Notes under the pieces: model-generated
The model's input: only the letters and a program-made list of their open reading frames with translations
Databases searched by the model: none
What the model was told of the DNA's origin: nothing
Source of the DNA: an uncultured Eubacteriales bacterium
GTDB lineage: Bacteria; Acidobacteriota; Aminicenantia; Aminicenantales; Aminicenantaceae
NCBI GenBank assembly: GCA_964429795.1
Contig: CAYSCW010000003.1
Span: 67,061 to 131,060, forward strand
Direction of reading: 5' to 3'
Length of the DNA stretch: 64,000 bases
Position numbers and translations under genes: made by a program
Shown: positions 5,133 to 19,820 of the stretch, one piece after another
Layout: the number at the start of each line of letters is the position of its first letter
Position numbering within the stretch: the stretch's first letter is position 1

Positions 5133-6503
5133 ATGGATCTGAAAGGAAAAAAAGTGTTGGTTGTAGGATTGGGAAAGACAGGAGAAGCAGTCTGCAAGTT
5201 CCTCCTCAGCCGAGGGGCCCAGGTAAAAGTGAGCGAGAAGAAGACAGATGAAGAACTCGGGGAAAAAATCTCTCTATGGGTCAATAATGGAGTGACGGTG
5301 GAGACAGGAAGACATCAGCTACAATCTTTCCTCGAAGCAGACCTGATCGTTCCCAGCCCGGGAGTTCCTCCCCTGCCTGAGCTCAAAACCGCGCAGGAGC
5401 GGGGAGTCAAAATCATCTCCGAAATAGAATTAGCTTACAACTTTCTGAGAGGCAAAATCGTGGGAATAACGGGATCCAACGGAAAATCCACCACAGCCTC
5501 CCTTACTCATAAAATCCTCCAAGAAGGAGGGGTGCCATCGTATCTGGGTGGCAACATTGGGACACCATTGATCAGCTTTGTCGATGGAAGCAAAGGCGGC
5601 GACGTCTATGTGACAGAGATTTCTAGCTTCCAGCTCTTCTATATTGAACACTTCAGAGCTTCTGTTTCAGTTTTTCTTAACATTTCTCCAGATCACCTCG
5701 ATTGGCACCCCTCTTTCTCCGACTATTATGAGGCAAAAAAGAAACTCGTCCTTCTCCAGGGAGAAGACGAGAACGCTGTCCTCAACCAAGACGACCCTCT
5801 GGTCTGGAGCCTCCGCAACGAAGCGAAAGCCCGCATCTATGCTTTCAGTCGGGAGAGGAAGGTCTGTCCAGGATGTTACATCCATAAGGGTTGGATCGTC
5901 CTCATCGATACGGATAAGAAAAGAGTGATGAAGACCTCAGAAATCCCTCTTTTTGGCGTGCATAATCTGGAGAATGTGTTGGCCGCCTCTCTGGTGGGGA
6001 ATCTCTTCTCTCTGCCTCACTCTGGAATCAGAGAATCCATCCGAAGCTTTAAAGGGCTGGAACATCGCCTGGAAAAAGTTGCCAATATAAAAGGAGTGGA
6101 TTTCTATAACGATTCCAAGGCCACAAACGTGGATGCCGCCTTGAAATCCATCCTGAGCTTTGATCGCAACATCATCCTTATAGCCGGAGGAAGGGACAAA
6201 GGAGGAGATTTCGAAAAATTGAGGAAGCCTATACAGGAAAGAGTCATAAAAATCATGCTCATAGGGGAGGCCAGACATAAGTTAAAGAAGGCTTTATCCC
6301 ATACCGTTCCCGCCGAGGAAGTCTCCTCCCTGGAAGAGGCAGTAAACAGAGGCTTCTCCCAAGCAAGCCCTGGTGATGTGGTTCTTCTTGCTCCCGCCTG
6401 CACAAGCTTTGACATGTTCGAGAATTTTGAACAGAGAGGCCTCATTTTCAAGCAAGCGGTCTTTAACCTCAAGCAAGCTCTGGAGAGAGAAAAGGAAAAC
6501 TAA
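5133..6503 (+). CDS. murD: UDP-MurNAc-L-Ala--D-glutamate ligase
   Basis: GLGKTG, GITGSNGKSTT, DHLDWH, NDSKATN and LLAPACTSFDMF motifs. Confidence 0.97.
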   Translation: MDLKGKKVLVVGLGKTGEAVCKFLLSRGAQVKVSEKKTDEELGEKISLWVNNGVTVETGRHQLQSFLEADLIVPSPGVPPLPELKTAQERGVKIISEIELAYNFLRGKIVGITGSNGKSTTASLTHKILQEGGVPSYLGGNIGTPLISFVDGSKGGDVYVTEISSFQLFYIEHFRASVSVFLNISPDHLDWHPSFSDYYEAKKKLVLLQGEDENAVLNQDDPLVWSLRNEAKARIYAFSRERKVCPGCYIHKGWIVLIDTDKKRVMKTSEIPLFGVHNLENVLAASLVGNLFSLPHSGIRESIRSFKGLEHRLEKVANIKGVDFYNDSKATNVDAALKSILSFDRNIILIAGGRDKGGDFEKLRKPIQERVIKIMLIGEARHKLKKALSHTVPAEEVSSLEEAVNRGFSQASPGDVVLLAPACTSFDMFENFEQRGLIFKQAVFNLKQALEREKEN

Positions 6504-17751: not shown

Positions 17752-18003
17752 AAAATCGCATGAGGCAAAAAAGTAAGATTTGAGATGAGATATGAGATAA
17801 AGGAGGTCAAATATTCTCTCCTCTCATCATCCGCCATCAACAGCTCCCGCTGGATGAGAAGGATCGGAGGAGGACGTACTGCATAACGAAGGTAAGTGGT
17901 GAGGTGGGGAGTGATATTCGGCACTGAGTATGACAGGATAGGCAGGAACTTACCTTTGAGGTAAGGTAAGGACTTGGGATTCCTTAAATATTGGAATCCT
18001 TTC
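17752..18003 (+). ncRNA. Putative sigma54-dependent GGA-rich small RNA
   Basis: Between the sigma54 promoter and a terminal hairpin. No ORF >=60 aa on this strand, 12 GGA triplets in 17802-17995, internal hairpins. Confidence 0.45.
17977..18002 (+). terminator. Probable intrinsic terminator hairpin
   Basis: GGATTCC-ttaaatatt-GGAATCC followed by TTT (short U-tract). Confidence 0.45.
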
Positions 18004-18122
18004 GGTTGATGTGAAAAAGATTAGACCAAAAAAAAGCTTCTTCTAATCACGCATCCTTTCTTCTAAATAAGCAAAGTCTAAGCAAATTATATTTGGAAAA
18101 AATCTTTATGTTTTTACTGTGA

Positions 18123-18639: not shown

Positions 18640-18790
18640 CGTATGATTTATTGATTTTATTTGCATTTATATTTGAAGTCGTATTGATGTATTTATTCGT
18701 ATTTTGCGGTATTTGTTTATTTGTTTATTTGAAGTCCGTTTTTTTATTTGTTTGGACTTTGTTTATTTGAAGTCGGTCTGTTCTAAATTA
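18640..18790. repeat. T-rich degenerate repeat array left of the RAYT gene
   Basis: ATTTGAAGTC at 18671, 18727 and 18765, embedded in TTATTTG/TTTATTTG-like iterations. Confidence 0.7.
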
Positions 18791-18845
18791 TTGATATCAA
18801 TCAATTAAGCCTTTATTTTCATATCCATAATTGTCTTAGATGAGA

Positions 18846-18862
18846 ATTTTTTCGGGCAAAAT
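18846..18862 (+). repeat. 17-bp direct repeat, left copy flanking RAYT
   Basis: ATTTTTTCGGGCAAAAT, identical to 19608-19624. Confidence 0.85.
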
Positions 18863-18881
18863 CGTCGATTAAAACGATAAA

Positions 18882-19607
18882 ATGTCCCGCGCTAAACTTT
18901 ATTATCTTCCCGGAATTTGCTGGCACATTACTCATCGATGCCATAATAGAGATTTTCTCTTGAAATTCTCTAAAGACCGCAAAAGATGGCTTTATTGGTT
19001 GTTTCAGGCGAAGAAAAAATATGGGCTATGTATTTTAAACTATGCTGTCACTTCCAACCATATCCACCTGCTGGTTAATGACGATGGAAGAAGACATGTT
19101 ATTCCCAGGTCCATTCTCTTGACTGCAAGCCGAACCGCCCGAGAATACAATCAGAGGAAAAGCCGCAGAGGCGCTTTCTGGGAGGACCGCTATCATGCCA
19201 CAGCCATAGAGTCGGGAAAACAGTTGAATCAGTGTATGGCCTACATTGATCTAAACATGGTCCGAGCAGGGAGAGTAGGACATCCGGCCGAATGGCCATC
19301 TTGCGGATATAACGAAATCGTGAGCAACCGACAAAGATATCGACTCATTGCTATAGAAAAATTATTGGAGTTATTGCATATTGAAGATCGAGAGAGTCTA
19401 AAGAAATTCTACACGGAATGGATTGAATCTATGTTGGAATCTACGAAGTTAGAGCGCGAAAGCCGCTGGACTGAAAGCATAGCAGTTGGGAAGCGAGATT
19501 TTGTTGAAACAATAAAAGCTAGACTTGGCATTAGGGCATATTACAGAGATATCGAAGAACTTCAAGGATCATTCGTATTAAAAGAACTTGGAAGGCCTTT
19601 CAAGTAG
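18882..19607 (+). mobile_element. REP-associated tyrosine (Y1/HUH, RAYT-type) transposase
   Basis: HITHRCHNR, SNHIHLL (HUH), FWEDRYH, AYIDLNMVRAG (catalytic Tyr) and EWPSCGY motifs. Confidence 0.9.
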
Positions 19608-19624
19608 ATTTTTTCGGGCAAAAT
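19608..19624 (+). repeat. 17-bp direct repeat, right copy flanking RAYT
   Basis: ATTTTTTCGGGCAAAAT immediately after the stop codon. Confidence 0.85.
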
Positions 19625-19682
19625 AGAAGGTCTAAGTGCAAAAATTTGAAGAAAATAAGGATTATATCTTTTATAATCTACG

Positions 19683-19820
19683 ATTTGTTGTAGCCCGCCT
19701 TCAATTCCAACAATTCAAATTTGTTGTAGCCCGCCTTCAATTCCCAAAATCAAGACCAACATCAATTCCACAATTCCAATTCCATACTTCAAATACAAAT
19801 TACGCTTTCAATTCATACTT
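19683..19820. repeat. C/A-rich repeat array right of the RAYT gene
   Basis: Two exact 26-bp copies of ATTTGTTGTAGCCCGCCTTCAATTCC (19683-19708 and 19719-19744), then CAATTC iterations and ACTTCAAATA. Confidence 0.8.

Follow-up and report, generated by a model that had tools for sequence, protein, structure and literature searches.

A probable single-copy TIRtron resident in an Aminicenantaceae contig, with paired near-palindromes inside and hypervariable arrays outside its degenerate terminal inverted repeats

The DNA considered here, a 64-kb window of contig CAYSCW010000003.1 (GenBank assembly GCA_964429795.1) from an uncultured Eubacteriales bacterium placed by GTDB in the Aminicenantaceae, carries a transposase gene, here called tirYT, together with a set of repeats on either side of it. 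Read from the outside in, each side consists of a hypervariable array, a degenerate terminal inverted repeat (TIR-L or TIR-R) and a 40-nt near-palindrome (H1 upstream, H2 downstream), with the gene in the middle (Table 1), and comparison of the loci indicates that this anatomy is common to dozens of homologs. The window version of the locus was compared with homolog and strain loci (L-numbers), the homolog set comprising 80 GTDB loci, and with Logan contigs of other sequencing runs, which also served for checking the array joints; statements on dispersed copies cover the 64 kb of the window. All repeats listed in the original prediction, an earlier reading of the same DNA, are present where it had placed them.

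The open reading frame (ORF) of tirYT, which starts with an ATG at 18882 and stops with a TAG at 19605–19607, encodes a protein matching Pfam Y1_Tnp (E 5.9e-10), in which both the HUH motif (NHIH) and the Y motif (YIDLNMVR) are conserved across the alignment of relatives (alignment A1). The AlphaFold2 (AF2) model of the protein has a predicted local distance difference test score (pLDDT) of 86.9, and its best Foldseek match is 4ER8, the E. coli TnpA_REP (E 7.7e-7), a structure containing a bound hairpin of a repetitive extragenic palindrome (REP), followed by the IS608 and ISDra2 transposases. The Y1_Tnp domain and this fold match bear out the earlier identification of the enzyme as an HUH protein of the type of the REP-associated tyrosine transposases (RAYTs). 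The score against the NCBIfam RAYT equivalog model NF047646 (REP_Tyr_transpos) is 64.3 bits, under the cut-off of 80, and that against the IS200 model NF033573 is 21.7 bits, under the cut-off of 55. When the TIRYT reference sequences of the published alignment (Additional file 5 of PMC3733652) were searched with BLASTP, the entire window protein, with its C-terminal extension, aligned to hch1378 (30% over 222 aa, E 1e-23); pca3049 was matched with an E of 3e-15, while the match to the E. coli RAYT was confined to the catalytic core (23% over 150 aa, E 4e-6). The relatives number more than 7,900, chiefly from metagenome bins of Aminicenantes, Desulfobacterota, Brocadiales and Nitrospirota, and most of them are annotated as plain "transposase". 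The Y motif, at 19242–19265, has the form Y---NM, where the methionine is invariant in 24 relatives (alignment A1), and the clade with this signature may be an unclassified subclass of TnpAY1 proteins. A profile search of alignment A1 against PDB sequences and a Pfam search of the C-terminal domain gave no match; taken alone, this domain was modelled by AF2 with a pLDDT of 68, had no Foldseek match below E 0.3, and could be assigned no helix-turn-helix (HTH) or DNA-binding fold. An Rfam scan of the window locus and seven homolog loci found no relevant family.

Table 1. Features of the tirYT locus, with positions counted from the first nucleotide of the window.
Feature	Position	Strand	Description
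Left hypervariable array	18654..18768		T-rich; TATTTGAAGTC at 18670, 18726 and 18764; TATTTGTT units; from repeat and Tandem Repeats Finder (TRF) output
TIR-L, degenerate	18769..18794	+	GAAGTCGGTCTGTTCTAAATTATTGA; homolog of family GGGGTCGGGCCAAGCTAACTTATTGA; aligned with L004, L005, L007 and L019
Promoter-like TTGATA-17-TATTTT	18791..18819	+	Between TIR-L and H1; from a consensus scan, the number of sites not being above shuffles
H1, upstream 40-nt near-palindrome	18835..18874	+	Covariance model R1, 32.2 bits, E 2e-4; 20.1 bits on the minus strand
tirYT gene	18882..19607	+	241-aa Y1 HUH tyrosine transposase; NHIH, YIDLNMVR, C-terminal extension of ~100 aa
H2, downstream 40-nt near-palindrome	19597..19636	+	Covariance model R1, 30.2 bits, E 6.6e-4; overlaps the stop codon
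Relic of ancestral C-terminal tail coding sequence	19608..19649	+	In-frame after the TAG, IFSGKIEGLSAKI*; alignment A1
TIR-R, degenerate	19677..19702	+	TCTACGATTTGTTGTAGCCCGCCTTC; homolog of family TCAATAAGTTAGCTTGGCCCGACCCC; alignment A3
Right hypervariable array	19703..19814		Second TIR-R end copy, CAATTCC-type units, ACTTCAAATA, CGCTTTCAATTC (at 19803..19814)

The 17-mer ATTTTTTCGGGCAAAAT lies at 18846–18862, 19 nt upstream of the ATG, and again at 19608–19624, abutting the TAG; these are its only exact copies in the window, where three matches with up to three mismatches were found against 0.71 expected, and the similarity around them reaches 38 nt at 74%. They had been regarded as direct repeats boxing the gene. 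In a comparison of the 75 nt 5' of the ATG and of the 3' tails across ~60 homolog loci, they prove instead to be the central ATTTT-loop-AAAAT part of a family-wide near-palindrome, CTTAnA-N6-nTTTT-N6-AAAA-N7-TnTAAG, whose downstream copy overlaps the stop codon. The motif is present on both sides in nearly all of the 80 homolog loci. The covariance model R1 has exactly two matches in the window, both on the plus strand, and each homolog locus likewise gives two in corresponding places, H1 being ~50 nt 5' of the ATG and H2 at ORF nt 716–755 in most of these loci. A simple ungapped direct-repeat test of upstream against downstream sequence flagged 7 of 53 loci, a weak test superseded by the motif and covariance-model analysis.

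In most homologs H2 encodes a conserved tail (..PY...F..KN..L(R)..N.YFW); the window lineage has a TAG immediately 5' of the H2 core, a stop position common to the window version, L084 and L085. The in-frame relic behind the TAG resembles the ..F..K(M/N)SGL..K.. tails of longer homologs, and this segment is non-coding, yet has 88% nucleotide identity between the window version and L085. Stop codons occur before or inside H2 in at least eight other loci, where the nucleotide motif is likewise kept, and the constraint thus appears to act on the nucleic acid and not on the peptide. In an ungapped alignment of 48 H copies, scored as a 17-bp hairpin, 74% of the cells are paired against 68% after shuffling, and covariation is 0.249 against 0.165, values as high being reached in 0 of 500 shuffles in both cases, while slid registers of the alignment are 32–55% paired. 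Very stable H1 hairpins occur in some relatives (L050 and L031, z about -5.8). The flanks had been described as non-hairpin, which holds for the window in that REP hairpins are lacking but not for the family with its strong H hairpins: the H elements are degenerate in the window, and hairpin-type forms exist among its relatives. The H1 and H2 of one locus are more alike than H1 and H2 copies from different loci (11.0 vs 9.2 of 26 variable columns, p < 0.0002).

A parallel C-to-A change is seen at 18857 and 19619 in the L085 lineage (L085 and L086), where the core reads TTCGGGA in H1 and TTCGGCA in H2; the window version and L084 have TTCGGGC in both copies. It gives one hint of concerted or co-selected change of H1 and H2.

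Nearly every homolog locus has TIRs, with GGGGTCGGRCCAAGCTAAC(TTATTGA) ~105–135 nt 5' of the ATG and its complement 0–25 nt, sometimes 40–75 nt, 3' of the stop, the variants in Aminicenantes TIRs being TGGGGACRGGCCACA. The outer-end motif is GGGGACAG or GGGGACGG in Aminicenantes relatives and GGGGTCGG in the main family. The window TIRs were located by alignment to relatives and by the boundaries of strain-level conservation, which resumes at ~18762 on the left and stops at 19700 on the right, at the outer ends of the TIRs; TIR-L agrees with the consensus of the family in 18 of its 26 nucleotides. The inverted sequence which the flanks were said to share is present, but in the window alone it is not above chance (best 26-mer complementarity 18; shuffles mean 17.1, maximum 20) and gets its meaning from the comparison with homologs. 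The shuffled control for TIR detection was contaminated, the TIRs being conserved family-wide. Elsewhere in the family the TIRs evidently are the boundaries of the mobile unit, since the elements of L029 and L051, 97.5% identical and lying in unrelated flanks, are identical from exactly TIR-L on, and since internally deleted derivatives retain a TIR and an H at each end.

Derivatives of this kind are found in L053 (4215–4550) and L011 (3400–3700), which are ORF-less, ~300 nt long and arranged as TIR-L, H1, first ORF codons, last codons with H2, and TIR-R, that of L011 also having a GACCCCAAAATAC x2 array outside TIR-R; they resemble non-autonomous elements of the type of miniature inverted-repeat transposable elements. 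In L033/L036 (2966–3841), two copies on one contig, 10 kb apart, are 99.9% identical from the H1 loop (H1 at 2947–2986) through TIR-R and three CCAATAG units, and the breakpoint in L036 adjoins a TIR-R-like end which is itself preceded by two H-like motifs, so that the rearrangement breakpoints lie at an H loop and a TIR end. L066 contains solo near-perfect H palindromes (1546–1760 and 5716–5830), one of them followed by a ~100-nt right-end segment in tandem duplicate (GGTCTGACCCC at 1641, GGTCCGACCCC at 1742). In L004 (2665–3916) and L019 (2683–3839), from two Aminicenantes metagenome-assembled genomes, flanks of 93–96% identity enclose different ~1.2-kb members of the family, whose proteins are 73% and 58% identical to the window protein, respectively, which suggests that a single chromosomal site has undergone site-specific re-insertion or replacement. 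At 39.4 kb and 43.3 kb of the window, weak TIR-like matches and a tblastn match fall within long ORFs and were taken as chance.

Outside the TIRs, the left flank contains TATTTGAAGTC three times exactly, and one inverted copy with one mismatch is found at 19785–19795, where ACTTCAAATA (19786–19795) is the exact inverse of TATTTGAAGT. The 26-mer ATTTGTTGTAGCCCGCCTTCAATTCC stands at 19683 and 19719, its starts 36 nt apart, and no such match appears in shuffles; the second TIR-R end copy is at 19713–19738 (21/26 identical) and the second 26-mer copy at 19719–19744. With an AT skew of -0.51 for the left array (T-rich) and a GC skew of -0.7 for the right one (C-rich), the earlier description of a T-rich left array with three TATTTGAAGTC copies and a C/A-rich right array with two exact 26-mers is confirmed. 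The flank motifs have no further copies outside ORFs. The left units (TATTTGAAGTC) and the right units (GTAGCCCGCCTTCAATTCC, CAATTCC and ACTTCAAATA) are outer-half copies of the two termini, and the arrays can be read as degenerate reiterations of the TIR outer halves. As the array units copy the two TIRs, they have opposite orientation and opposite strand composition, and the usual rule of inverted orientation for RAYT flanks is followed. The GTAG on which the description of the units had laid weight is not kept even among strains (GCAG in L084) and is TTGG or GTGG in the wider family; its presence in the 26-mer is coincidental.

Between the window version and L085, identity is 93% from the lipoprotein start to the first unit, 29% in the left array (83 vs 159 nt), 92% from TIR-L to the ATG, 88% from the stop to the end of TIR-R, and 62% in the right array; judged by these values, the arrays outside the TIRs turn over far faster than the surrounding DNA. 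The left array differs in length and sequence in L084, L085 and L088, and X9 contigs omit 18704–18762. On the right, the window version has two 36-nt units with GTTGTAGCCCGCCT, L084 has a duplication of its own, GACTTGGCGCAGCCCGCCT-ATCTGCAAATAATCTG-GACTTGGCGCAGCCCGCTT, in place of 19700–19803, and in L085 and L086 the one TIR-R is succeeded by ~8 CAATTC units; the same joints recur in Logan contigs of other runs. The duplications in the window version and L084 share their inner boundary and have unrelated spacers, and the right terminus has evidently been duplicated independently in the two. In the wider family, tandem repeats are found in 49 of 122 flanks, against 10 of 92 distant windows, and a TRF array touches the outer end of a TIR at 19 of 70 element ends, against 4 of 70 controls. 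These arrays usually take in the last 2–14 nt of the TIR; sometimes the whole TIR is duplicated, in units of 35–58 nt (L024, L045, L008, the window version and L084), and L029 has ~7 copies of the outermost TIR nucleotides where its near-identical twin L051 has none. The suggestion that the arrays were iteratively grown is supported by the hypervariability, the independent duplications of the right terminus and the enrichment in the family.

The element sits at the same site, between a lipoprotein-like gene and a TonB-dependent receptor gene, in the related strains L084–L087, while synteny with the window was found in 0 of the 80 GTDB homolog loci. The tirYT gene, which is single-copy and vertically inherited, is under purifying selection, with a dN/dS of 0.10 and a dS of 0.29, the latter similar to that of neighbouring genes. 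In the sister species (L088–L092), where the lipoprotein is 83% identical, a deletion derivative occupies the site (L088 4555–5000); it keeps a ~220-nt left array, TIR-L, H1 and the first 46 nt of the ORF, and is joined to window position ~19795 at a CA(A)TT microhomology with the right array. The same site across strains and the derivative in the sister species mark the element as old, fixed and vertically inherited here; it has stayed at one site through speciation, and while selection maintains it in one lineage, it is decaying in another. The search for an empty site in relatives, as proposed earlier, yielded no such site and only this deletion remnant. L086, whose protein is the same as that of L085, is unrelated to it 5' of TTAATTAGGCC (L086 1–100) and is without TIR-L, left array and lipoprotein gene, owing to either a rearrangement that removed the left end or a chimeric contig.

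In anatomy and family assignment, the locus is very likely a resident single-copy TIRtron, that is, a TIRYT-type gene with its own cis elements; it belongs to a class already described and does not represent a new kind of system. The names TIRtron and TIRYT were introduced for a RAYT-like gene between TIRs by Di Nocera, De Gregorio & Rocco 2013 (PMC3733652), with a GGGGWSAS motif in some TIRs and TIR copies occurring as dimers or clusters. The TIRYTs correspond approximately to TnpAY1 subclass 2.1 of Quentin et al. 2018 (PMC6006769), which is RAYT Group 1 of Bertels et al. 2017 (PMC5581495), and no REP-like structures were found near subclass 2.1 genes (PMC6006769). As in TIRtrons, the protein of the window is a RAYT-like Y1 HUH enzyme, ~240 aa long and extended at the C-terminus. 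Long inverted repeats unrelated to REPs are clear at fixed distances in the family, the homologous positions of the window being complementary at 16/26, a value not above chance by itself; the outer ends of relatives (GGGGACAG or GGGGTCGG) are near the published GGGGWSAS, whereas the window TIRs lack GGGG and read GAAGTCGG. H1/H2 and the strain-level hypervariability of the arrays go beyond the published description of TIRtrons. The class 2/subclass 2.1 signature comprises Y---NP, NHVH or NH[YF]H, W[EQ], a median length of 238 aa, a C-terminal extension and no REP (PMC6006769); the window protein agrees in its 241 aa, WE, C-terminal extension and absence of REPs, but has NHIH for the HuH motif and YIDLNM in place of the NP signature. 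Paired subterminal palindromes and hypervariable end arrays are unmentioned in the 2013 and 2018 papers (PMC3733652, PMC6006769), beyond which literature searches gave nothing newer on TIRYT internals.

The IS200/IS605 elements (IS608, ISDra2) share with the locus the Y1 HUH domain, one imperfect palindrome near each end and the occurrence of internally deleted derivatives, and the window H1 and H2 have the same orientation on one strand, as do the left-end and right-end hairpins of those elements, although this orientation is not significant family-wide (p = 0.34). They differ in having no TIRs and a transposase of ~130–155 aa with Y---Q, against 241 aa and YIDLNM here; moreover, the window element is not multi-copy, and its protein scores far under the cut-off of the IS200 model.

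As to mechanism, by analogy with IS608 and TnpA_REP the enzyme would probably recognise H1 and H2 when single-stranded DNA folds them into hairpins, and cleavage and rejoining would follow at the TIR outer ends or close to them. Repeated abortive or local cleavage and rejoining at these ends could seed tandem terminal arrays, which slippage would remodel once repeats exist. The general form of this proposal, namely that TIRYT enzymes act in cis via H1/H2 to cut and rejoin at the TIR outer edge and thereby continuously build and remodel arrays, is tentative and rather on the doubtful side; that the enzyme drives the arrays, and not slippage alone, has a chance somewhat short of even. With anatomy, family and array driver weighted together, the reading as a whole is nonetheless probably the best explanation of the locus. 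The different end-processing or repeat-building mechanism suggested by the original prediction keeps the iteratively grown arrays in its favour, but the architecture had already been described, and a distinct mechanism stands as a hypothesis.

Several findings weigh against this explanation. TIR-L and TIR-R of the window are complementary at only 16 of 26 positions, which is not above chance in such AT-rich DNA; the window H1 and H2 fold no better than shuffled sequence, inner-stem pairing across the family is only 41–49%, and neither the direct orientation of H1 and H2 family-wide nor any asymmetry of G:T over A:C in the H motif, a test for a folded strand, came out as significant or present. 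No true empty site was found among the relatives, as the homolog with the 83% lipoprotein is a deletion derivative and that with a 56% lipoprotein is non-syntenic, and literature searches gave no biochemical data for any TIRYT. Detectable arrays stand at only about a quarter of element ends (27%), and, tandem repeats being intrinsically unstable, hypervariability alone does not implicate the enzyme.

The last two points are also what slippage would lead one to expect. According to this serious rival, the arrays are replication-slippage minisatellites in low-complexity intergenic DNA, for which the TIRs merely gave seed repeats (G/C runs, T-rich tracts), the enzyme being uninvolved. Many array units are indeed short (7–17 nt) and of low complexity, any tandem repeat is expected to be hypervariable, and the overlap of array and TIR varies between 2 and 14 nt with no fixed junction. 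It accounts less readily for the enrichment exactly at the outer ends of TIRs (19/70 vs 4/70), for the 35–58-nt duplicated units which hold a whole non-repetitive TIR, for the independent duplications of the window version and L084 with one inner boundary and unrelated spacers, and for the fact that both ends of one element are affected. Slippage without the enzyme is accordingly held to be quite possible, yet not the favoured account.

A second serious rival concerns H1 and H2, which could be double-stranded dyad operators or mRNA structures, serving autoregulation via the C-terminal domain, translation control or termination. H1 lies between the promoter-like site and the ATG, the invariant positions of the motif are dyad-symmetric (CTTA..TTTT..AAAA..TAAG), and the window copies are conserved between strains, yet unfolded; as there is no excess of G:T over A:C, a single-stranded hairpin and a double-stranded dyad site are indistinguishable on this ground. 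A regulatory role fits poorly with the second copy that nearly every member has at the extreme 3' end of its ORF, with the co-variation of a locus's own H1 and H2, with the ORF-less derivatives that retain both copies beside the TIRs, and with the copy pair whose breakpoint lies inside the H1 loop. The structural relatives (4ER8, IS608) bind DNA hairpins, and for the C-terminal domain no HTH or other DNA-binding fold was assignable. The regulatory explanation is therefore considered somewhat unlikely, and transposase recognition sites remain the preferred reading of H1 and H2.

Three further explanations are contradicted by the data. In REPtrons, reportedly described by Nunvar in 2010 and by Ton-Hoang in 2012, a RAYT (TnpA_REP) gene is flanked by clusters of REPs or bacterial interspersed mosaic elements (BIMEs). 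The locus resembles them in its nearest solved fold, in being single-copy, vertically inherited and under purifying selection, as domesticated RAYTs are, and in its clustered flank repeats of inverted orientation, and a GTAG is present within the 26-mer. A classical REPtron, with GTAG-tagged REP hairpins dispersed through the genome, is nevertheless very unlikely, for no REP hairpin stands at the flanks, the GTAG is not conserved (GCAG in L084, TTGG or GTGG in the family), the flank motifs form no dispersed repeat family in the 64 kb, and the protein is longer, has the extra C-terminal domain, falls under the NCBIfam RAYT cut-off and is nearer to the TIRYTs. It is still less probable that the two exact 17-mers, although they closely bracket the ORF, are a target-site duplication, an att-type scar or a recent local duplication: they are internal, the distance being 76 nt to TIR-L and 52 nt to TIR-R, dozens of unrelated loci have the motif in these two places, mostly as part of coding sequence, in L085 and L086 the two cores of the locus are unlike each other, and the deletion derivative L088 keeps H1 alone. 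That the arrays are assembly or low-complexity artefacts, an outcome which had been named as fatal to the first account of them, can practically be dismissed: short-read contigs do break in the arrays (19713 being the end of L001 and 18609 the start of L003), but the locus region is 100% identical in three further metagenome assemblies (L001–L003), making four independent assemblies with the same sequence, the intergenic flanks of L087 are also identical, and related strains from other studies carry distinct but coherent array versions.

For the question of how RAYT-type tyrosine transposases generate and multiply repeats, the locus and its strain variants provide a map of candidate cis sites, namely the TIRs and two co-evolving 40-nt palindromes, and a natural before-and-after series of terminal duplication, in which the window version and L084 are duplicated and L085 is single, and L029 has an array and L051 none. 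This palindrome pair and series of end duplications are what is added to the known class, and they make the hypothesis of enzyme-driven repeat building testable. If the hypothesis is true, the locus would show in situ how REP/BIME-like repeat clusters are made and multiplied by RAYT-type enzymes; if slippage alone has produced the arrays, it would be an ordinary domesticated or decaying transposon. The locus also gives evidence that purifying selection can keep such an element at a single chromosomal site through speciation.

Two minor observations concern the neighbourhood of the gene. The promoter region of the divergent lipoprotein gene contains the left array, which, if the enzyme does remodel it, could be a source of local regulatory variation, and the promoter-like site between TIR-L and H1 is a possible tirYT promoter, to be taken as a weak lead only. 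Further upstream, ~285 nt of unrelated sequence in the window (17813–18096) replace the gene for a 401-aa aldo/keto-reductase which in L085 sits between the DeoC-type aldolase and lipoprotein genes.

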